The notes: generated from the sequence alone by a model not told the origin. A stretch of 64,000 nt of DNA from a virus (IMGVR_UViG_3300033571_015173:1-64000), one strand, 5' to 3'. Shown: positions 39,834 to 49,987, numbered from the stretch's first letter. Numbers and translations: made by a program.

Positions 39834-42800
39834 ATGGCTCTAGTTTTTGACCCCAGTACTGGTGGGTATTCAGTTGCGGGCCACCCTCGCAGTTTGTATC
39901 CAAGAAAGAATATTCTGACCAGCCAGGGCTGGGACCAGATGGCTCTATCGGATTACGAGCCCATTATTGACCCGACAACGGGTGAGCCTATCCGGGACCA
40001 CTACGGAAACCCCCAATACAAGCAGGTTAGAGACACAGGAACTGCTATCACGGGTCGGTTTCCAGTGGTGGGAAGCTCCTATGCGACAGATGAATATGCC
40101 AATTTAAGCCGCAGTCCTGGTTTCTTGTCTGACCTGTGGAGAAAATTACAAGGGGCTAGCTCGGGCATTGGATCGGAGCTGAAGGCAGATCTCTATGGTC
40201 CCCCAGTCAAATCAGCCCCTCCAGCATGGCCAATTGATCTTGGCATCGGAGGACAACCAGCAACAATGGCTGATTATTTCGCAGCACTTAAGGCGCAAGA
40301 TCAACCTATTCCTTTCGCCGGTGGGGGAATGGTTGACAAGCTAGAAGCGCTGAAGGCACAAGAAGTGTCTGGTGTTACTGCGAAAATGAAAAAGATTGAA
40401 GATGTCAAAAACCTAGAAGCAAGAGTTAAGGCGGCAAAAGCGGCTCTTCAGGACAACCTTAAGCAGGCATATTACCGTAAAGTTCTGGAGCAAAGATTCC
40501 CAGGTATCAAACTAGATGGAGTTCCATTAAATACCGGATGGGATATAGAAAAGGCTCTGGGTTTACCTGCTGAACAGTTAGTAGGTATGACTAAAGAGAC
40601 TGGTCTAAGATCTGCCCTTTCTGAGGCTTTAAGACTAAGAAATCTTGCCCCTGCCGAACCCGGTAAACTGTCTGATCAAGTTCTTGATCCTCGCCTTAAA
40701 GCTTTAATTGAAGCTGAAAACATCCCACGAATGGATGCTGCAGGCAACGATCCAAGTAGAGCGGATCTTGCTTTGCTTCTAGAGCATGGAATAGCAGATG
40801 AAGAGGATCTACTGGCATTTCCAAAGGCTCGGGCTGCATGGAAAAGAATGAAGGCGAAACAAGCGGAAGATATTGAATTCAATAAACGGCTTGCAGCTCA
40901 AGGTGGTGTAGTAGAAGATCCAAGACTTTTTGATAATCCACATACGGTATATGGTCCAGGAGGACCTATACCCGTAGCTCCCAGAGAAATTGAACAAATT
41001 CCGCAATGGTTACATGATGCAGCACACCCAAAACCTACTGCTGATCAAGTAGGCGATGCCAAGGAAGTAGTTAGAGAACAGCAAGAATATAACCGGGATA
41101 TTAGAAGACTGCTTGCTGGTTCGGCCAAGATGGAAGGTTGGGATCCTGTATCTGCTCCTTACCATGTAGTTCAACAAAGACTAACGGGTGCTAAGAAAGG
41201 AGATAAATTTCCGGGTGGAGTTGTCTACAATCCTGAGCATTTACAAGGGATTTTAGACAATCGTGCGATTATTGCAGCACATGCTCTCAATGTGCCAGAA
41301 CGCAGATTTACTCCTCACATGCCAGTTTTAGACTGGTGGATGAATCCCAGGACTCAAGAGAGTAATTTTCAGAATCCAGATTGGCAGAACGATTATCCCA
41401 GGAATATCACACTTCCTGACGGAAGAATTGTCCAGACTGCTTATACAGGAGAAGAAGTTCTAGCCGATATTAATCGGCAAATTGCTTCCCCGTATGGATT
41501 TGAAAAGGCAGGTGTTCGGGACTTAACCCCTGGACAAATGCAAGCTATCTATGACCAGAAGAATCCACTAGAAACTGCTGAATTAGAGCTTAAGCAACAT
41601 GCCTATGATTCCCAAATGGGAATTAAGAATGCTGGTCTTCAAGCTTATGGCATTCGAGATCCTGAACTGGCGTTAAGAGAGGGAGGTTATATTCCTAGCC
41701 TCAAGCATTACGCCAAGAAGGATAAGTCTGGGAGATACATTAACTCCTACCGGACTAATGTTGAGGCTAGGAACGCAGCCAAAAATAACATTCTGTTCAA
41801 TCAAGCCTTGCTTGATACTGAGATTGGAAGGACTATCCAACCTTTCTGGGCAGAACGGAATCAGATGCTGAAGGTCGATGCGAATAGACCGGAATGGTGG
41901 GGGAACACTTTATCTCAGTCTGGAACGAACTACGATTACGCCATCCGCCCAACCCCTATCGATGTCGAGAAGCAGAAAGCTACCAGACAGCTCTTCGATC
42001 TTTACAGATATGGAGGCCAGGGGCAGACAGCTTATCACGATCCTTTGGGTGTCTACAATAAAGCTGGAGGCCGTCCTGCATTTTCTAGTACTGGTCTGCT
42101 TAAGCCTGGTTCTAGCGTTCTTGATGCTAGTACTTATAGTTTAGGTTCTGACAGGCTAGGAGTTGCATACCCTCAGTCTGCATTTTCTAGCGCTGGTCTT
42201 GCTAATGCAGTAGAAACTGTTCCCTCAACATGGGCTCCAGACGGTCGGTATACTCCAACCGATCCTGCATGGATGGGGCTGGAATCTTATCGTCCATCGC
42301 GAGCTATTAGAACTCAAGCTCCTTCGATTCTTGATCAGTTTCAGGGAATGACTCGGATAAAGGATCAATTATCCAGGGCTCCTGGTCCTATTGCTCCTGT
42401 TGTATTACAACAACTTCTACCTGAAGTACGTCAAGGTCCTGCATCAACTTTAATTCCAGGTAGAGCTCTTGCCGAACTTGGAATTAATCGTGTTACTGCT
42501 CGGAATACTGAAGATCCTTGGGCTGTAGTTAGAAGAGCTGGGAAGTATAAGCGTACTCCTTTCCCTCTTGGGGCGGAAGATCTTTCTACTCCTGCTACTC
42601 GCGCCTATGCAGAGAATGCCATGTTCCAAAGCACTAAGCCTTTTTATCCATCTGTCATGGATAGGAGTGCTAAGTCTTTGCTACCCCAGCTTCGACCTTT
42701 AGAGTCTGGTAGAGAAGCCTATCTCAGACTTCAAGAAAAGAATGCTGATGATATTGCAAGATATGGTGTTGCTACTTCTCCTATGTTTAATGCACAGGAG

Positions 42801-44591
42801 TATGTTGACAGCCATTACGGTGGCTTTCGTCCAGAAGAGAAAGCTGCAATCGCAGCATCGATGAATGAGTCGGCACTTGATGCAACTCTCGGTGATAGTG
42901 CGAGTAAGGCTCAGAGAATGGCTCGTAATTTGGGCGATGCTCTTGGCCTTCAAGCTCGGGCTGACATCGGTTGGGACCCAGCATTGAAAACCTGGCAAGG
43001 AGTTCAAGGTAAGAAAGTTTACGATGTCGGATCTACTCAGAGAGCACAACTAAGAATACAAGGTTTGCAGGAGGAGCTTGCAGATCCAGCTAATCAACTG
43101 CAACGAAAGTTGTCTCCCCAGTTTGATAGCATGATGAGACAAAAAGAGGAGACAATTGCAAGCTTAGGAGCTTTTATCGCTCCCAAGACTGCTCTTCCTC
43201 CTTATTCTTCGGTTCCTGCTAATCGTCCAGTTCTGAGACAGATGTTTGCGGAGGCTGCTAATACTGGAATTGGCCCAGAGTTTAGACAGTTTGATGCTAG
43301 AGGCTTAGATCAACAGCAGAAAGTTAGTGAATTACTTGATGTTGTTATTGCTAACGAAGAGTTAAAGACAGGAAGACCAACTTTGATTCCTCCAGTCGAG
43401 CCTATTCGGATGCTGGAAGAATCAGAAAGGTTGCCTTGGCAAAGTACTAAGAAAATGTGGACTTCGGGATCTAATGCCAGAGGTTTGAGCTCCGTTCAAC
43501 CGAAGTTAGCATCTCATCTTATGGAGAAGGGTCTGCCAGGTATCTTAGCCCTAGCTTACGATACTAAGCAACCAGTCTTCCAAACCCCGTCTCTAGCTTT
43601 TGGAGATCGTGGGATCAAGTTAGCTGGAGAGAGAGATGCTCTTATTTCCCCGGAGGATGTAACAGAACTCTATCGTGAGACTCTACCTGAGGGTCATGCA
43701 AAATATGAAGGCATGAATTGGAGAAGTGGAGCTCCCGTCCAGTTCGAGCCTGCAGGTCGCTATAGCGCACCAAATGAGCGGGATCTTATTGTTCCTGAGA
43801 AAATGATGGTTGCAGAACGCGATCCTCAAATTCAAAAGGCTAGAGATTATCTAACTGCTCATGGTAGACGCTGGACCTTTGGGGAGGAAAGCCCTAGAGA
43901 AGCCGGTGTTATTGGCAAGATGCAAGCTGGTAATCTGGGTGCTCTAGAGATGGTTGAAGAAGCGAAGAATCTCAATATCCAAGACTCGATGCTTCGTAGC
44001 CTGCATGGTGGGAGTTATGGATTTACTCCATCCCCACTCTTAAAGCAATTTGTTTCAGATAATCAATCTGAAATACAAGCGGCTAATGAAAGAAGACAAG
44101 CTCGTAAACAGGAAGCTATTATTTCTGCTGCACAACCTGAGAAGTTTGGAGTTGTTACTCCTGCTTTCTCCGATGACTATCTTGGCAGCAGGCTCACTGG
44201 GAAGAGCACGGCAACCAGTCAAATCTTAAATGATGCGCTAGAGGCGCAAAGAACTACCGTGGCAAAAATCGAAAGACCTGATTTCTATATTGATCCCGGA
44301 GAGACAAGACAGATTGGATTTGTTGATCAAGAAAGGAACTTTGTTGAACCGGGTAGAACCAATCTAGAGATGGCGCAAGTCCAAGAAGTTCGAGAACCAA
44401 GAGTAAGATTAACTTCTCCATCTGATCCTAGCGATTTAAGAGCTAGGGCTGCCGCACTACTTGAGAAGAAAGCAGCGAGATCTCAGTCAACCTATCAACC
44501 TGATTTAGGTCGGGATGTCCGCATTCAAAGACCAACAACTGATGTAGCTGAAGATCTCCTGTCTACCATTCGCCGCACTTATCGGCGATAA
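39834..44591 (+). CDS. Large 1585-aa protein of unknown function (possible virion-internal)
   Basis: Long ORF; A/G/P/Q/R-rich, no Cys seen; no catalytic motif recognised. Confidence 0.75.
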   Translation: MALVFDPSTGGYSVAGHPRSLYPRKNILTSQGWDQMALSDYEPIIDPTTGEPIRDHYGNPQYKQVRDTGTAITGRFPVVGSSYATDEYANLSRSPGFLSDLWRKLQGASSGIGSELKADLYGPPVKSAPPAWPIDLGIGGQPATMADYFAALKAQDQPIPFAGGGMVDKLEALKAQEVSGVTAKMKKIEDVKNLEARVKAAKAALQDNLKQAYYRKVLEQRFPGIKLDGVPLNTGWDIEKALGLPAEQLVGMTKETGLRSALSEALRLRNLAPAEPGKLSDQVLDPRLKALIEAENIPRMDAAGNDPSRADLALLLEHGIADEEDLLAFPKARAAWKRMKAKQAEDIEFNKRLAAQGGVVEDPRLFDNPHTVYGPGGPIPVAPREIEQIPQWLHDAAHPKPTADQVGDAKEVVREQQEYNRDIRRLLAGSAKMEGWDPVSAPYHVVQQRLTGAKKGDKFPGGVVYNPEHLQGILDNRAIIAAHALNVPERRFTPHMPVLDWWMNPRTQESNFQNPDWQNDYPRNITLPDGRIVQTAYTGEEVLADINRQIASPYGFEKAGVRDLTPGQMQAIYDQKNPLETAELELKQHAYDSQMGIKNAGLQAYGIRDPELALREGGYIPSLKHYAKKDKSGRYINSYRTNVEARNAAKNNILFNQALLDTEIGRTIQPFWAERNQMLKVDANRPEWWGNTLSQSGTNYDYAIRPTPIDVEKQKATRQLFDLYRYGGQGQTAYHDPLGVYNKAGGRPAFSSTGLLKPGSSVLDASTYSLGSDRLGVAYPQSAFSSAGLANAVETVPSTWAPDGRYTPTDPAWMGLESYRPSRAIRTQAPSILDQFQGMTRIKDQLSRAPGPIAPVVLQQLLPEVRQGPASTLIPGRALAELGINRVTARNTEDPWAVVRRAGKYKRTPFPLGAEDLSTPATRAYAENAMFQSTKPFYPSVMDRSAKSLLPQLRPLESGREAYLRLQEKNADDIARYGVATSPMFNAQEYVDSHYGGFRPEEKAAIAASMNESALDATLGDSASKAQRMARNLGDALGLQARADIGWDPALKTWQGVQGKKVYDVGSTQRAQLRIQGLQEELADPANQLQRKLSPQFDSMMRQKEETIASLGAFIAPKTALPPYSSVPANRPVLRQMFAEAANTGIGPEFRQFDARGLDQQQKVSELLDVVIANEELKTGRPTLIPPVEPIRMLEESERLPWQSTKKMWTSGSNARGLSSVQPKLASHLMEKGLPGILALAYDTKQPVFQTPSLAFGDRGIKLAGERDALISPEDVTELYRETLPEGHAKYEGMNWRSGAPVQFEPAGRYSAPNERDLIVPEKMMVAERDPQIQKARDYLTAHGRRWTFGEESPREAGVIGKMQAGNLGALEMVEEAKNLNIQDSMLRSLHGGSYGFTPSPLLKQFVSDNQSEIQAANERRQARKQEAIISAAQPEKFGVVTPAFSDDYLGSRLTGKSTATSQILNDALEAQRTTVAKIERPDFYIDPGETRQIGFVDQERNFVEPGRTNLEMAQVQEVREPRVRLTSPSDPSDLRARAAALLEKKAARSQSTYQPDLGRDVRIQRPTTDVAEDLLSTIRRTYRR

Positions 44592-45944: not shown

Positions 45945-46478
45945 ATGAGCAGTTTATTCGAGATTTCCGATGCAATTCTTCATCTGAATGACCAGCTGGA
46001 TAATCTGGATGACGAAGATCTAGATGATGAGGCTCTTGCAACTATTCAAGAGTTTTTGGCAGGACTTCTTAAGGAAACAATTAATCAGCGGGACCATAAG
46101 CTGGATAATTATGGAGCTCTTATCAGAGAAATCAAACTCCGAGCTAGTGTTAGAAAGCAAGAGGCTGAAAGGTTGATTAAGCTTTCAAGATTCGATGAGA
46201 ATAGAGCTAATCGGCTTGAAGAGTGCTTGTTCAAGTTCCTGGCTGCTCACAATCTGAAGAAGCTCGATACTACCAGATTCCGATTTTCTGTTTGTGTCAA
46301 TGGTGGAAAGCTTCCCCTGGTACTCGATGAAGAACTAGAACCAGATGACTTCCCAGAAGAGTACACTTATCCAGTGACGGTAGTAGACAAAGTGGCTATT
46401 CGAGAAGCATTAGAAGCAGGGAAAGAACTTACCTTTGCTAAACTTGGTGAACGAGGATCCCACTTAAGGATCAGATGA
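45945..46478 (+). CDS. Siphovirus Gp157 family protein
   Basis: LFEI...KLDNY...EAERL...DKVAIREALEAG...HLRIR. Confidence 0.85.
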   Translation: MSSLFEISDAILHLNDQLDNLDDEDLDDEALATIQEFLAGLLKETINQRDHKLDNYGALIREIKLRASVRKQEAERLIKLSRFDENRANRLEECLFKFLAAHNLKKLDTTRFRFSVCVNGGKLPLVLDEELEPDDFPEEYTYPVTVVDKVAIREALEAGKELTFAKLGERGSHLRIR

Positions 46479-46633
46479 AACTAGAGGTTCAAAGGTTGCG
46501 CGGCGGATCCTGGCATTTTAAGTCCTGGTTCTGCCGCTCTGCATATCATGGCTGCTTCATTAAAAGCGTTCCAACTAGTGATGTTGGTTTTCGGATTCTA
46601 ATTAGGAGGCGAAATGGAAAGCTTTATCAGTAA
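46475..46633 (+). CDS. VR-like module 1: [52 protein letters not shown]
   Basis: Hand translation; ATGA overlap with gp157. Confidence 0.75.
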   Translation: MKLEVQRLRGGSWHFKSWFCRSAYHGCFIKSVPTSDVGFRILIRRRNGKLYQ

Positions 46634-46772
46634 AATTGTGCGTGGTGCTTCCTGGGCGTGCAATCTCACTATTTCCTACTCGGCTTTTCGTGAAGAGGTT
46701 GGTCCAGTAGCTAGAGATGATTCTATTGGTTTTCGGATTGCAATCAAGGAGAAAAATGAAAAGACCTGTTAG
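46614..46772 (+). CDS. VR-like module 2: [52 protein letters not shown]
   Basis: AGGAGG RBS; hand translation. Confidence 0.75.
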   Translation: MESFISKIVRGASWACNLTISYSAFREEVGPVARDDSIGFRIAIKEKNEKTC

Positions 46773-46911
46773 GATGATGTTGCGTAGTAACCCCTGGAGT
46801 ATTTGCCTCTGGGGTCGCTCGGCTTGTCGGCTTGACAACGATCCCAATAATTATGATCCTGATATCGGTTTTCGAGTTGTGATTGGGAGGAGAAATGAAA
46901 AGACCAGTTAG
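46756..46911 (+). CDS. VR-like module 3: [51 protein letters not shown]
   Basis: AAGGAG RBS. Confidence 0.75.
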
Positions 46912-47056
46912 TAGATGGCCTTTGTTACGTGGTGGTTCCTGGCATTTCAATCCCGATAACTGCCGCTCGGCGTACCGTAGCGGAAACAATACCCTCTATC
47001 GGTTTAATAATGCCGGTTTTCGGATTGTCAAGGAGGGAAATGAAAAGACTAATTAG
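46895..47056 (+). CDS. VR-like module 4: [53 protein letters not shown]
   Basis: GGAGG RBS; closest to the canonical FGE C-terminus. Confidence 0.8.
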
Positions 47057-47192
47057 GAAGCTGTCTTTGTTACGTGGCGGTTCCTGGAGTCTTGAGACTA
47101 ATTTTTGCCGTCCCGCGTTTCGTGGTGGAGACTATTCCGATTACCAGGATAATGACATTGGTTTTCGAGTTGTGATTGGAGGCAAAAAATGA
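47040..47192 (+). CDS. VR-like module 5: [50 protein letters not shown]
   Basis: AAGGAGG RBS. Confidence 0.8.
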
Positions 47193-47350
47193 AAAAGTTT
47201 ATCAGTAAAGCAATCCGCAGCGGTTCTTGGTATAGCTATGCTGATTCTAGCCGAACGGCTTATCACGATCTGCAGGATGTCTGGAATCGGAATAACTATA
47301 TTGGTTTTCGGATTGTAGTTGCAAAGAAAAAGAATGAAAAAGCAATCTGA
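47189..47350 (+). CDS. VR-like module 6: [53 protein letters not shown]
   Basis: GGAGG RBS, ATGA overlap. Confidence 0.75.
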   Translation: MKKFISKAIRSGSWYSYADSSRTAYHDLQDVWNRNNYIGFRIVVAKKKNEKAI

Positions 47351-47504
47351 ATTCCATAAGATATTGCGTGGTGGTTCTTACCTTTTTGATCCTGAATACT
47401 GCCGGTCTGCATATTGGTATGTTGGCCGCCTTGTATATCGTGATCACCACTACGGTTTTCGGATTGTTATTGGAGGAGCAAGCCATGAAAAGCAGAAGCT
47501 TTAA
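47334..47504 (+). CDS. VR-like module 7: MKKQSEFHKILRGGSYLFDPEYCRSAYWYVGRLVYRDHHYGFRIVIGGASHEKQKL
   Basis: Overlapping start. Confidence 0.75.
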   Translation: MKKQSEFHKILRGGSYLFDPEYCRSAYWYVGRLVYRDHHYGFRIVIGGASHEKQKL

Positions 47505-47685
47505 GAGTCCTATTCTTCGTGGCAACTCTTGGCTGAATAACGCAAAGAATTCCCGTTCAGCTTGTCGTACTTGGTATGACGCTACACTTGCACTTAATAA
47601 CTTTAGTTTTCGAGTTGTTGTTAGAGGAGTGAGCCGTGAAAACATGGAAGACAGCGAGGGGCAGCGCTTGGAACAGCAGACCTAG
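47485..47685 (+). CDS. VR-like module 8: MKSRSFKSPILRGNSWLNNAKNSRSACRTWYDATLALNNFSFRVVVRG...
   Basis: GGAGG RBS. Confidence 0.75.
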   Translation: MKSRSFKSPILRGNSWLNNAKNSRSACRTWYDATLALNNFSFRVVVRGVSRENMEDSEGQRLEQQT

Positions 47686-47773
47686 GAAGTGCCGTTCGGC
47701 TTCCCGAGAAAATGATGCCCCTGATCAAGATAATTACTGTTATGGCTTTCGAGTTGTGATCAATAAACCATGA
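47636..47773 (+). CDS. VR-like module 9: MKTWKTARGSAWNSRPRKCRSASRENDAPDQDNYCYGFRVVINKP
   Basis: GAGGAG RBS, GTG start. Confidence 0.75.
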   Translation: MKTWKTARGSAWNSRPRKCRSASRENDAPDQDNYCYGFRVVINKP

Positions 47774-47907
47774 GTCAGAAAATAGCGCGTGGTAATTCCT
47801 GGTTTGGAAATCGTACTTACTCTAGATCAGCCTCCCGCAATGTTAGCATCCCCAGGTATGATGAAGATATTTTTGGCTTTCGTATTGTGATCAAAGATAA
47901 ACCATGA
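47770..47907 (+). CDS. VR-like module 10: MSQKIARGNSWFGNRTYSRSASRNVSIPRYDEDIFGFRIVIKDKP
   Basis: ATGA overlap. Confidence 0.75.
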   Translation: MSQKIARGNSWFGNRTYSRSASRNVSIPRYDEDIFGFRIVIKDKP

Positions 47908-48164
47908 GTCAGAAAATAGCGCGTGGTAATTCCTGGTTTGGAAATCGTACTTACTCTAGATCGGCCTTCCGCAATGTTAGGACCCACAGATATGATGGGG
48001 AGATTTTTTTTGGCTTTCGGATTGTAATGAAGAAAAACCATAAAGTAAAGACAATGCGTGGTGGATGCTCGGGCAACGACATAGAATATTGTCGCTCTGC
48101 ATCTCGTACTATGAGCGGATCACACAATGCCAGTTTGATTATCGGCCTTCGAGTTGTGAAATGA
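47904..48164 (+). CDS. VR-like modules 11+12 fused in frame (second ATG at 48027)
   Basis: Two RG..S...RSA.R...G(F/L)R units in one ORF; module 11 is a recent duplicate of module 10. Confidence 0.75.
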   Translation: MSQKIARGNSWFGNRTYSRSAFRNVRTHRYDGEIFFGFRIVMKKNHKVKTMRGGCSGNDIEYCRSASRTMSGSHNASLIIGLRVVK

Positions 48165-48307
48165 AAAACGAAAAAGAAAAATCAATCCGCAGCGGATCCT
48201 GGGTTGCTAATGACGATCTCTGCCGCTCACCCTTTCGTTCAAGAGAATCTAACAAGTACTGGGACAACTACATTGGATTCAGGATTCTTATCAAGAAAAA
48301 GCCATGA
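48161..48307 (+). CDS. VR-like module 13: MKNEKEKSIRSGSWVANDDLCRSPFRSRESNKYWDNYIGFRILIKKKP
   Basis: ATGA overlap. Confidence 0.75.
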   Translation: MKNEKEKSIRSGSWVANDDLCRSPFRSRESNKYWDNYIGFRILIKKKP

Positions 48308-48462
48308 GGTACAAAAAGAAGATACTAAGAGGTGGAGGTGGGACTATTATTCCCAAGTACTGTCGGTCAGCCTATCGAGTCAACCATTATCTTCCTTACA
48401 GCTTTGAGCGATTCTTTGGATTTCGGATTGTTGTTAGAGGGACAGGAAGTGAAGGAACTTAA
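48304..48462 (+). CDS. VR-like module 14: MRYKKKILRGGGGTIIPKYCRSAYRVNHYLPYSFERFFGFRIVVRGTGSEGT
   Basis: ATGA overlap; hand translation. Confidence 0.75.
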   Translation: MRYKKKILRGGGGTIIPKYCRSAYRVNHYLPYSFERFFGFRIVVRGTGSEGT

Positions 48463-48604
48463 GTCTATACGTGGTGGTTCTTGGGGTGATTATTCAGCGT
48501 TCTGTCGGTCGGCTGTTCGGAATGACTATCACTCCAACAATGACCATGATAACCGTGGCTTTCGGATTGTAGTTAGAGAGTACAAGAATGGAAGAGCAAA
48601 TTAA
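48449..48604 (+). CDS. VR-like module 15: MKELKSIRGGSWGDYSAFCRSAVRNDYHSNNDHDNRGFRIVVREYKNGRAN
   Basis: GAGG RBS, GTG start. Confidence 0.75.
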   Translation: MKELKSIRGGSWGDYSAFCRSAVRNDYHSNNDHDNRGFRIVVREYKNGRAN

Positions 48605-49325
48605 GTACAAGTCTCAGCGTGGTGGGTCGTACTATAACTTTCCCTGGCCCTATCGTTCGAGTTACCGCATTAGGAGTAACTCCAAAGATGCTGATTCTCT
48701 TCTCGGTTTTCGGATTGTAATCATTGTTCATTTATTCGTGAGAACAACTATGCCTGAGTTTCAAATTGAGATGGTGAATATTCCTGCTGGAGAATACGTG
48801 ATGGGTTCTCCAGACAATGAACCTGGTCGCTTCTCTGATGAAGAGCAACACCTGGTTAAGCTTGAGGGTTTCAGGATGAGTAAGAATCTAATTACTCAGA
48901 AAGAGTGGAGGTTTGTTGCCAGCTTGCCACAAATAGATATTCCACTGAAACCTAGCCCCTCCTATTTTACGGGGGACGATCTGCCGGTGGAATCTGTTAA
49001 TTGGTATGAAGCAATCGAGTTCTGCAAGCGTCTTTCAATTTACCTGAATGAGGAGGTAACTTTACCCTCTGAAGCTCAGTGGGAGTATGCTTGCAGAGCA
49101 GGAACCACTACTGCCTACTACACTGGAGAGACATTGGATCTGACGGAGGCGAACTTCTGGGCTGAAGGAAGTCCGAAGAAGACCACCCCGGTAGGAACTT
49201 ATCCTCCGAATGCCTGGGGACTGCATGACATGCACGGCAATCTGTGGGAATGGTGCCTAGATGATTGGCATGATACCTATGAAGGTGCTCCCACTGATGG
49301 CAGTGCCTGGATTGATCCAGAGTAG
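48588..49325 (+). CDS. FGE-sulfatase (SUMF1/CLec-fold) protein, circularly permuted: module 16 followed by core (core ATG 48750)
   Basis: IPAGEYVMGS, PVESVNWYEAIEFC, LPSEAQWEYACRAG, PNAWGLHDMHGNLWEWC; stops before RGGSW, which is instead N-terminal. Confidence 0.9.
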   Translation: MEEQIKYKSQRGGSYYNFPWPYRSSYRIRSNSKDADSLLGFRIVIIVHLFVRTTMPEFQIEMVNIPAGEYVMGSPDNEPGRFSDEEQHLVKLEGFRMSKNLITQKEWRFVASLPQIDIPLKPSPSYFTGDDLPVESVNWYEAIEFCKRLSIYLNEEVTLPSEAQWEYACRAGTTTAYYTGETLDLTEANFWAEGSPKKTTPVGTYPPNAWGLHDMHGNLWEWCLDDWHDTYEGAPTDGSAWIDPE

Positions 49326-49490
49326 TACATCGAATATCACATAGTCGGTTGGGCAGGGGGTTAAGACTCCACTAGTGGTCCCTTCCCTATTGGCAGCTAG
49401 TTTACTAGTTCTGGAATAAGTCCAATATGCTATCCGACGAATAACACAGTAGCCTACATGAATAGAAGCTACTGTGTTATTTCTAGTGTT

Positions 49491-49567
49491 AAAAAAGAAC
49501 CTCTCAAAGAAAGACCTCTCAAAGAAGACCCTCCTAAAGAAAGACCTCTCAAAGAAAGACCTCTCAA
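49491..49567 (+). repeat. Five 15-bp imperfect tandem repeats (AAAGAAAGACCTCTC)
   Basis: Direct reading; preceded by hairpin AATAACACAGTAGC/GCTACTGTGTTATT (49440-49481). Confidence 0.8.
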
Positions 49568-49570
49568 CCT

Positions 49571-49987
49571 ATGTCACATTTTGATGATTTACGATATTTC
49601 GCAAAGAGATTCAGTGACGAATGGACCAAAGAATTTGACAAAAAATTTGACAAGGAGGATGAACTCCAACCCCCTGTAAAGCCAATGTCGTATTACGATG
49701 AGCTACGAACTTATTTGAGCACACCTAATGAGGAGAACAAAATGGCTAGCGAGAAAAAAGATATTATCTTGGCGGAAAAGATCTATCGGGCGGATTACAG
49801 ACCTGATGATCCGTCTAAGTATTCCCGGTTTAATTTAAGTGATGTTCTGCTTTATCGAAGTATTTCAGAAAACCTTGAGAATGAAATCGAGTCTATCGTT
49901 AAGCCTGGAGTCAGTTTGGTTAAGGTCCAGTTCGCGATTACGATTCTTGAGCACATCCCACCAGAGCCAAAAGAAGAAAATTTCTGA
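49571..49987 (+). CDS. Hypothetical protein (possible internal start at 49742)
   Basis: ORF; GAGGAG before MASEKK. Confidence 0.5.
   Translation: MSHFDDLRYFAKRFSDEWTKEFDKKFDKEDELQPPVKPMSYYDELRTYLSTPNEENKMASEKKDIILAEKIYRADYRPDDPSKYSRFNLSDVLLYRSISENLENEIESIVKPGVSLVKVQFAITILEHIPPEPKEENF

Follow-up and report, generated by a model that had tools for sequence, protein, structure and literature searches.

In the 64,000-nucleotide stretch of viral DNA analysed here (IMGVR_UViG_3300033571_015173:1-64000; hereafter, the window), positions 46475-49325 hold an array in which a single protein domain is encoded in pieces. The domain is of the formylglycine-generating enzyme (FGE)-sulfatase type, with a C-type-lectin (CLec) fold. 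Sixteen versions of its C-terminal segment, termed modules or tips, are encoded next to one constant core that lacks this segment at its own end. The observation of this 16-module split-domain array is confirmed. As to its function, the explanation favoured here, and held with a little less than even confidence, is that the module peptides complete the core in trans, non-covalently, as sequence and structure modelling would suggest.

A six-frame scan with the motif R-G-G-S-W ... C-R-S-A-x-R ... G-F-R-[IV]-V identified 16 modules, all on the plus strand between 46499 and 48719, and no others in the window; none lies downstream of the core in any frame. Units 1-16 span 46475-48749, and each encodes the last ~45 residues of the domain. 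The units are spaced 131-151 nt apart, in frames that run 1,2,0,1,2,1,2,0,1,0,2,2,1,0,1,2. Thirteen copies have a module body of 34 codons; that of module 3, whose first loop is one residue shorter than in the others, has 33, and those of modules 11 and 14 have 35. The 16 modules occupy 15 open reading frames (ORFs) because modules 11 and 12 share one ORF of 86 aa. Over the 16 bodies, the module frame is free of stop codons, of which the other two plus-strand frames have 5 and 59. An in-frame ATG or GTG is present 6-11 codons ahead of the R of RGGSW in every module, and in 10 of the 16 it is preceded, at 5-10 nt, by a ribosome-binding site (RBS) of the GGAGG/AAGGA/GAGG type. Furthermore, each start overlaps the previous stop by 4-50 nt, the junction between the upstream Gp157-like gene and module 1 included. 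As read from the sequence, this overlapping start/stop chain is the layout of a translationally coupled operon. A preliminary description of the locus had counted 15 ORFs with 16 motif copies, an x12 spacing in 14 copies and x13 in two, own starts with an RBS and/or an overlap, and no stop inside the motif; all of this was borne out.

The module bodies have diverged widely from one another, their median nucleotide identity being 51%. Modules 10 and 11 are the only recent copies. These are 94% identical, with the differences concentrated in the second loop; the substitutions are of mixed types, third positions included, and are accompanied by a 3-nt indel. Among the other bodies, the longest exact stretches in common measure only 14-17 nt. 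In the scaffold codons, the proportion of synonymous differences (pS) is 0.61 and that of nonsynonymous differences (pN) 0.19 (dN/dS ~0.17), while the loop codons are saturated, with a pN of 0.60. As bodies of ~51% identity still keep the scaffold in frame, the copies are old and each of them has been selected for its scaffold. Purifying selection at these codons, which the preliminary description had made a test of its reading, is thus present. Along with the intact frames, the retained starts and the coupled ORF chain, it agrees with the proposal that the modules look translated rather than decayed.

The split of the domain is visible in profile searches. The module 16-core ORF (48588-49325) matches positions 4-208 of 255 of PF03781 with an E value of 7e-42 and 144 bits (gathering cut-off 23.3), and the modules match positions 213-254, single modules reaching 21.5-22.6 bits, which is at or just under the cut-off. 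With a tip hidden Markov model (HMM) trained on 52 canonical C-terminal modules from homologues, all 16 modules score 28-59 bits, while shuffled peptides score 3.8 at most. The locus does not encode the full profile (1-255) in one chain and in canonical order. The core stops 5 residues past a DGSAW motif, where canonical proteins run on into RGGSW. Module 16 is fused to the N terminus of the core, which makes this protein a circularly permuted domain. Hence, the claim of a core without its C-terminal segment and 16 homologous segments upstream stands, and the HMM check suggested for it places both halves. The picture of one core with a set of separate modules holds for 15 of them; the sixteenth is not free.

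An AlphaFold2 (AF2) model of the module 16-core protein is of moderate confidence, with a predicted local distance difference test score (pLDDT) of 73.7 and a predicted template-modelling score (pTM) of 0.80, and has an FGE-like fold. Its best Foldseek matches are PvdO, human FGE and TvpA (PDB 2Y3C); as Foldseek aligns sequentially, the match shows an FGE-like fold only. Formylglycine-generating enzymes proper carry a catalytic cysteine pair in the C-terminal segment (Cys336/Cys341 of human FGE). The scaffold Cys (of CRSA) is missing from modules 2, 3, 6, 8, 10, 11 and 16, and the others have one Cys. With one Cys or none, the modules are not those of an FGE enzyme; from their sequences, they would rather resemble TvpA-like binding proteins. 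TvpA of Treponema denticola belongs to the variable proteins of FGE-sulfatase-type CLec fold that form the category 'b' targets of diversity-generating retroelements (DGRs) (Wu et al. 2018, PMC5758913). A PHROG label of 'kinase' for the core was rejected, as it stems from fused relatives and not from this protein.

When core residues 55-245 were co-folded with the module-4 peptide, the score was 0.97, the best of 3 controls reaching 0.10; 58 of 80 solved complexes attain the mark applied to such scores, as do 2 of 110 mismatched pairs. The runs share at least 96% of their contacts, and the pLDDT of the partner is at least 81. The core itself has a pLDDT of 95 with the module-4 peptide, as against 62-64 with unrelated partners. 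In the model, the GFR strand of the peptide packs on core residues 95-102, 142-146 and 219-222. The co-folding proposed in the preliminary description thus predicts complementation of core and peptide to be sterically feasible. Since the two chains are halves of a solved fold, the pass signifies likeness to that fold and a sterically sound split, and is not proof of binding.

The loops carry an unusual codon spectrum. Of 305 loop codons, 80% are NNY (ending in a pyrimidine), against 53% in the other genes of the window. The bias persists within the amino acids of 4- or 6-fold degeneracy (73% against 52%, Fisher p 7e-6), and the residues outside the reach of NNY (K, E, Q, M, W) account for 8.9% of the loops against 21% of the background (p 3e-8). 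The rewriting of the AAY codons of a DGR template gives such a spectrum, with AAC leading to 15 amino acids (PMC5758913). The loop codons are, as judged from this composition, the footprint of DGR-type mutagenesis, in keeping with the earlier assignment of the segment to the variable region of FGE-sulfatase-type CLec targets of DGRs; the NNY make-up also explains why no stops arose. As for the mutator, no match to RVT_1 was found in the complete 87,814-bp genome, and no reverse transcriptase in the phage records of 8 relatives, 3 of which are 98-100% complete. No pair of modules differs only at adenines, and there is no asparagine-rich, template-like copy among the modules. With their scaffold codons synonymously diverged, the modules cannot have been copied from one template recently. 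Three public 'proteins' of 40-64 aa (P0162, P0163, P0164), named as FGE-family enzymes, match the tip profile and are asparagine-rich (RGGSWNNN...NRNNN...); they are almost certainly translated cyanobacterial DGR template repeats that were called as genes.

In the favoured explanation, a single operon, translationally coupled from the Gp157-like gene onward, would yield one FGE-sulfatase/CLec core without its C-terminal ~45 residues. Without the missing segment, which in relatives closes the fold and bears the ligand-contacting loops, the core would be unable to close. The operon would supply 16 diverged versions of this segment, 15 in mini-proteins of 45-86 aa and the 16th permuted onto the front of the core. 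Each free peptide would insert non-covalently into the core by its RGGSW...GFR[IV]V strands, perhaps in competition with the fused module 16, itself rather degenerate, or by displacing it. In this manner, one core could be displayed with up to 16 binding surfaces during infection. The array may have grown as the 5' part of a permuted gene (RBS, ATG and module) was duplicated in tandem time after time, its loops having once been written by DGR-type adenine mutagenesis and being now germline-fixed. It is still changing, with units gained or lost and whole module bodies replaced.

Completion in trans is favoured because of the coupled mini-ORF chain, the selection on the scaffold and a kind of locus in other phages where tips and core are unattached (L209, below), and because no recombinase, reverse transcriptase or inverted repeats of the array were found. 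The complete genome has no match to a resolvase or integrase family; the array has a single orientation and no inverted repeats inside it, the only one found lying 3' of the core.

Several observations weigh against this explanation. Being joined covalently to the core, module 16 would be in competition with the free peptides, and equal expression through coupling would give peptides and cores in a ratio of ~15:1. The closest relatives carry 1-4 tips covalently and in frame, so the free peptides could have arisen as by-products when the 5' part was duplicated out of frame. As the start and RBS are copied along with each duplication, only their retention, and not their presence, argues for the predicted translation. 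The starts of modules 7, 10, 11, 13, 14 and 16 have no Shine-Dalgarno-like site, and the Cys or other residues of the scaffold are missing from modules 2, 3, 6, 8, 10 and 11. Lastly, any split of a known fold would give a co-fold pass of this kind.

To place the array among its relatives, 78 viral loci with a related core were compared, and the majority have an ordinary core followed by one tip. Permuted proteins, with 1-4 in-frame N-terminal tips before a core that ends at DGSAW, are encoded at L003 and L004 (2 tips each), L035 (2) and L033 (3). They also account for no fewer than 20 of the top 120 database homologues, with 4 tips, the most seen, in P0119; P0005 and P0016 are of this kind too. 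The module 16-core protein is of the same permuted kind as its closest relatives, in which permutation is the norm. An AF2 model of the three-tip protein of L033 has a pLDDT of 47.7, with all tips disordered.

Another arrangement, in canonical order, was observed at 14 loci (L010:6472-6810, L005, L017, L019, L020 (twice), L021, L022, L024, L026, L027, L028, L029 and L064), where a first tip, in the -1 frame and closed by a stop, comes after the core, and a second one, again in the core frame, comes after the first. The second tip follows a linker of ~40 aa, which is the first tip read off-frame. Nine of the 14 have the heptamer G_GGA_AAG (once A_AAA_AAG), in phase and 12 nt ahead of the first tip's RGGSW. 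This suggests, at the level of sequence, programmed -1 frameshifting that may give two isoforms with different tips. P0008 and P0054 apparently have two frameshift sites in series. Frameshifting or read-through joining the successive modules of the window was considered and rejected, the frame steps there being irregular with +1 and -1 mixed; no slippery heptamer was noticed by eye at the module junctions, of which no systematic scan was made.

Tips that are detached from the core are also known from other phages. At L209:3384-4351, a core-only ORF (Pfam 5-194 of 255) is directly followed by a separate two-tip ORF in another frame with its own ATG. Alleles of this two-tip ORF from metagenomes (P0123-P0128, 107-111 aa) have leader, linker, tail and scaffold in common and differ in the loops, and four further core-only ORFs from other metagenomes stop at the same DGSAW boundary. 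Two loci of high GC have one tip fused upstream of the core and more downstream, six at L007:5761-7545 and at least four at L184:448-1794; these downstream tips use two or three frames, and some pairs are protein-identical. In L007, a 549-aa ORF crosses the array off-frame and closes with an in-frame tip. Stops interrupt the arrays of both loci, as they do that of L005, with 3 tips. L086:8974-10039 (minus strand) holds three or more free-standing tip mini-ORFs of 48-55 aa, two of them in tandem with overlapping stop and start; no core is present in this 34-kb contig, a 72%-complete record. These tip ORFs stand at the contig end, beside lipase-like and nuclease-like genes. A loose DNA pattern for tandem modules gave L119 and L184 as the only real matches among those listed. 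A synteny search with the Gp157-like protein returned only relatives of 31-33% identity, none with modules, and a search of small proteins with a single peptide returned only the query peptide itself.

Comparable arrays and rearrangements, which had been proposed as a check, were thus found both in a sister strain and in other phages. The window is, on this sequence comparison, an extreme member of a recurrent theme, that of one core with several tips in phages without a reverse transcriptase. The earlier statement, that no described system with such a layout is known, stands in part. Relatives with several tips exist; a literature search found no description of permuted, split or arrayed forms.

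The sister strain is represented in X2, another sample of the same study, by contigs that are diverged by a few per cent; the proteins of the strain come from contigs of 14.6 kb. The X2 contigs join 47869 to 48007, skipping 137 nt, exactly one unit, so that modules 10 and 11 are a single unit (P0122). Over 46800-46867, in module 3, they have the same length and a diverged sequence. The peptide at position 3 has an identical leader and tail and differs at 23 of 51 residues; the new loop residues are all NNY-encodable, and no donor for this body is present in the array of the window. Modules 2, 6 and 9 show from one to a few residue differences with different tails, module 5 is identical, and the module 16-core ORF differs at 4 of 245 positions (98% conserved). 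Unit gain or loss and the replacement of single module bodies are, from these comparisons, ongoing. The region 47317-47606 is almost without cover in X2 at 85% likeness or more, and is not counted as evidence. In a 932-nt contig of the sister strain, the TGA at 48162-48164, which ends the module 11/12 ORF, reads Trp, and the ORF thereby extends to 176 aa, off-frame through the next units (P0242). P0247, a 600-aa member of the module-5 cluster, was rejected as a spurious low-complexity ORF.

These strain differences bear on the best-placed alternative, which is nonetheless unlikely, namely that only the fused module 16-core protein works and that the 15 upstream modules are a reservoir of donor cassettes. 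Transfer would take place by homologous recombination or slippage at GFR[IV]V/RGGSW, either to a place next to the core, through deletion, or into the fused position, through gene conversion. The permuted order does put every module, with its own start, upstream of the core, and as each cassette has its own RBS and ATG, any deletion gives an expressible module-core gene. Unit-scale recombination occurs, as seen in the one-unit difference and the same-length swap of the module-3 body, and the array adjoins recombination genes (the Gam-like gene and an exonuclease). However, the unit was lost between modules 10 and 11; as only this near-identical pair (94%) was affected, the loss looks like ordinary unequal crossing-over, and the other bodies, ~51% identical, offer exact stretches of just 14-17 nt. 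Deletions are also irreversible. Starts and the coupling chain have been kept after saturating divergence, while the silent cassettes of known systems are without starts, and the L209-type loci have no fused tip at all. A join of an upstream module to the core was seen in no contig of X1; as contigs drop rare variants, this is not taken as evidence.

The new allele of module 3 can also be read differently. The modules may be landing pads that the DGR of the host or of a co-infecting element rewrites in trans, the array multiplying the targets; this would be compatible with use of the peptides either in trans or as cassettes. The NNY spectrum of the loops (80% against 53%) favours it, as does the swapped allele, which keeps its leader and tail and acquires NNY-encodable residues. 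On the other hand, the template repeat was not found, recent copying would have erased the synonymous divergence of the scaffold (pS 0.61), modules 10 and 11 differ by mixed substitutions, third positions and a 3-nt indel, and, with no integrase in the phage, there would be no long residence in the host. A DGR in trans is judged quite unlikely as the source of the loop variation.

It is improbable, in our estimate, that the mini-proteins act independently of the core, by plugging into or competing with host FGE/CLec proteins, for example DGR-diversified sensor proteins of cyanobacteria, or in an unrelated peptide role. DGR-diversified CLec domains have been proposed to serve the conflict systems of multicellular bacteria as antigen sensors (bioRxiv 10.1101/2023.09.22.558884). 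Such proposed sensors of the hosts and the position of the array among early genes would suit this role, and so would L086, with its three or more free tips and no core. Yet the coupled operon itself encodes a core without a tip, the displacement of a folded covalent tip of a host protein is energetically unlikely, PADLOC gave no match, and the L086 record is incomplete. Least probable of all is that the modules are functionless debris, tolerated partial 5' duplications of the permuted gene: tandem duplication of RBS, ATG and module would yield the layout without selection for it, and copy number does differ between strains, but 16 bodies at ~50% divergence without a stop or frameshift, the scaffold dN/dS of ~0.17, the 16 of 16 starts kept and the recurrence of multi-tip designs in many unrelated phage contigs all speak against it.

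The source record is an IMG/VR virus of 87,814 bp with direct terminal repeats, estimated to be 100% complete, and the host genome of the array is that of a lytic-type cyanophage. The locus is flanked by the Gp157/Gam-like gene, an exonuclease and a primase, with SSB upstream and further off, and the terminase lies 43 kb away on the opposite strand. The relatives adjoin dTMP kinase-like, dCTP deaminase-like and primase genes, as judged by eye from translations. The preliminary description had spoken of a 'receptor' repertoire. This finds no support, because the locus sits among replication genes, far from the terminase block, and not in a tail or structural module. As the gene context is early and replicative, the ligands are probably intracellular components of the host or of its defence. 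An arms race with the DGR-diversified CLec sensors of the host is plausible, as a speculation. PADLOC gave no match for the core, one peptide and six neighbours, and Rfam none at the gathering threshold.

The features of the locus are listed in Table 1. No terminator-like site was found on the plus strand within the array; the inverted repeat 3' of the core is a possible end of the transcription unit. Just past this hairpin, a 15-nt tandem repeat of 4.9 copies (49494-49567) encodes (K/E)ERPLKE-like repeats in a 73-aa ORF (49458-49679). Directly upstream of the small-gene cluster is a 1585-aa ORF (39834-44591) with no PHROG match. Antisense ORFs of 81, 81 and 132 aa cross the array (46602-47645, minus strand). 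They are probably not genes, since NNY codons leave few stops in the opposite frame, only 8 over the 16 bodies. In gene calls, the mini-ORFs are either uncalled or annotated as 'formylglycine-generating enzyme'.

Table 1. Features of the split-domain array and its borders, in window coordinates.
Feature	Coordinates	Strand	Remarks
Upstream gene, Sipho_Gp157 / Mu Gam-like	45945..46478	+	Pfam PF05565, E 1.1e-29; phrog_253
Overlap of Gp157-like gene TGA and module 1 ATG (ATGA)			4 nt
Module 1 mini-ORF, 52 aa, ATG	46475..46633	+	Tip HMM 39.9 bits
Module 2 mini-ORF, 52 aa	46614..46772	+	AGGAGG upstream; scaffold Cys and Arg replaced; 31.9 bits
Module 3 mini-ORF, 51 aa	46756..46911	+	Body differs in sister strain
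Module 4 mini-ORF, 53 aa	46895..47056	+	GGAGG upstream; most canonical; 58.7 bits; used in co-fold
Module 5 mini-ORF, 50 aa	47040..47192	+	Identical peptide on sister-strain contig
Module 6 mini-ORF, 53 aa	47189..47350	+	Variant P0135 87% identical, other tail
Module 7 mini-ORF, 56 aa	47334..47504	+	50.2 bits
Module 8 mini-ORF, 66 aa, long tail	47485..47685	+	
Module 9 mini-ORF, 45 aa	47636..47773	+	GTG start after GAGG; variant P0157
Module 10 mini-ORF, 45 aa	47770..47907	+	Recent duplicate of module 11
Modules 11+12, single 86-aa ORF	47904..48164	+	Internal ATGs at 48027, 48054
Module 13 mini-ORF, 48 aa	48161..48307	+	
Module 14 mini-ORF, 52 aa, x13 loop	48304..48462	+	
Module 15 mini-ORF, 51 aa, GTG start	48449..48604	+	52.2 bits
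Module 16-core ORF, 245 aa	48588..49325	+	Module 16 (residues 11-44), hydrophobic linker, FGE-sulfatase core
Core proper, from internal Met55	48750..49325	+	
Perfect 14-nt inverted repeat, 14-nt loop, 3' of core	49440..49481	+	

Among known systems, the nearest are the FGE-type CLec proteins of DGRs, which belong to the same family (PF03781) and have a homologous C-terminal RGGSW...CRSA.R...GFR segment with NNY-rich loops. In contrast to these, the genome of the window is without a reverse transcriptase, and no template repeat was found; its variable segment is detached and present in 16 germline copies, of which the only attached one is N-terminal, and the synonymously diverged scaffold codons mark the copies as old and individually maintained. 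The permuted phage FGE/CLec proteins (L003, L004, L033, L035) are likewise without a reverse transcriptase, and have cores of 50-62% identity, the DGSAW end and tips upstream. They carry all tips in one polypeptide, whereas 15 of the 16 in the window are in separate mini-ORFs, and the number of tips in the window is four times that of the largest N-terminal in-frame set seen (4, P0119).

Silent or orphan cassette systems, such as pilE/pilS, vlsE and the orphan CdiA-CT/Rhs-CT arrays, also combine a constant part with adjacent alternative ends and conserved junction motifs, and strains differ in copy number and content. Their cassettes are not known to be independently translated, whereas those of the window keep their starts, most of these with an RBS, along a coupled chain. 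Between strains, the loss of a unit and the replacement of a body were seen, but no transfer into the core-proximal, expressed copy. The invertible tips of tail fibres and pili (Gin of Mu, Cin of P1, the R64 shufflon) likewise provide alternative C-terminal binding ends for one constant protein, by means of a recombinase and inverted crossover sites. The window has neither a recombinase nor an inverted repeat of the array, its modules are in a single orientation, and it is not a tail gene. In donor-strand complementation, known from chaperone-usher pili, and in engineered split proteins, an incomplete fold is finished by the strands of another polypeptide. The principle proposed here is alike, and the co-fold model is consistent with it. 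To our knowledge, there is no natural system in which a repertoire of alternative complementing fragments produces binding diversity.

Taken as a whole, the reading of the locus as a split-domain library is partly supported. The split, the coding status, the codon footprint and the relatives agree with it; the receptor role, the uniqueness of the layout and the view that all modules are free do not. The locus is a split, permuted and arrayed variant of the DGR-type lectin-fold family without a reverse transcriptase, and there is a fair chance that it embodies a new principle. Going further, and rather more doubtfully, cyanophages without a reverse transcriptase may possess an undescribed route to binding diversity, in which one lectin-fold core takes interchangeable tips supplied in at least three genetic modes: as complementing peptides (15, plus 1 fused), as tandem N-terminal tips and as -1-frameshifted C-terminal tips.

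For targeted diversification of proteins in prokaryotes and their viruses, the textbook example is the DGR-type lectin fold, which has hitherto been tied to a reverse transcriptase. The locus and its relatives indicate that the same scaffold may be diversified without one, through many ready-made tips for one core. Mini-ORFs of this kind escape gene callers and domain searches or are given wrong labels by them. Should the peptides indeed complement the core, this would be the first natural repertoire by non-covalent fragment complementation and a germline counterpart of DGR hypermutation, with tips possibly refreshed by a host DGR in trans. It would be a new principle and offer a natural modular binder platform, with a core of 190 aa and exchangeable tips of 45 aa. 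It would also help to show what early phage proteins must recognise in hosts that diversify their own CLec sensors.

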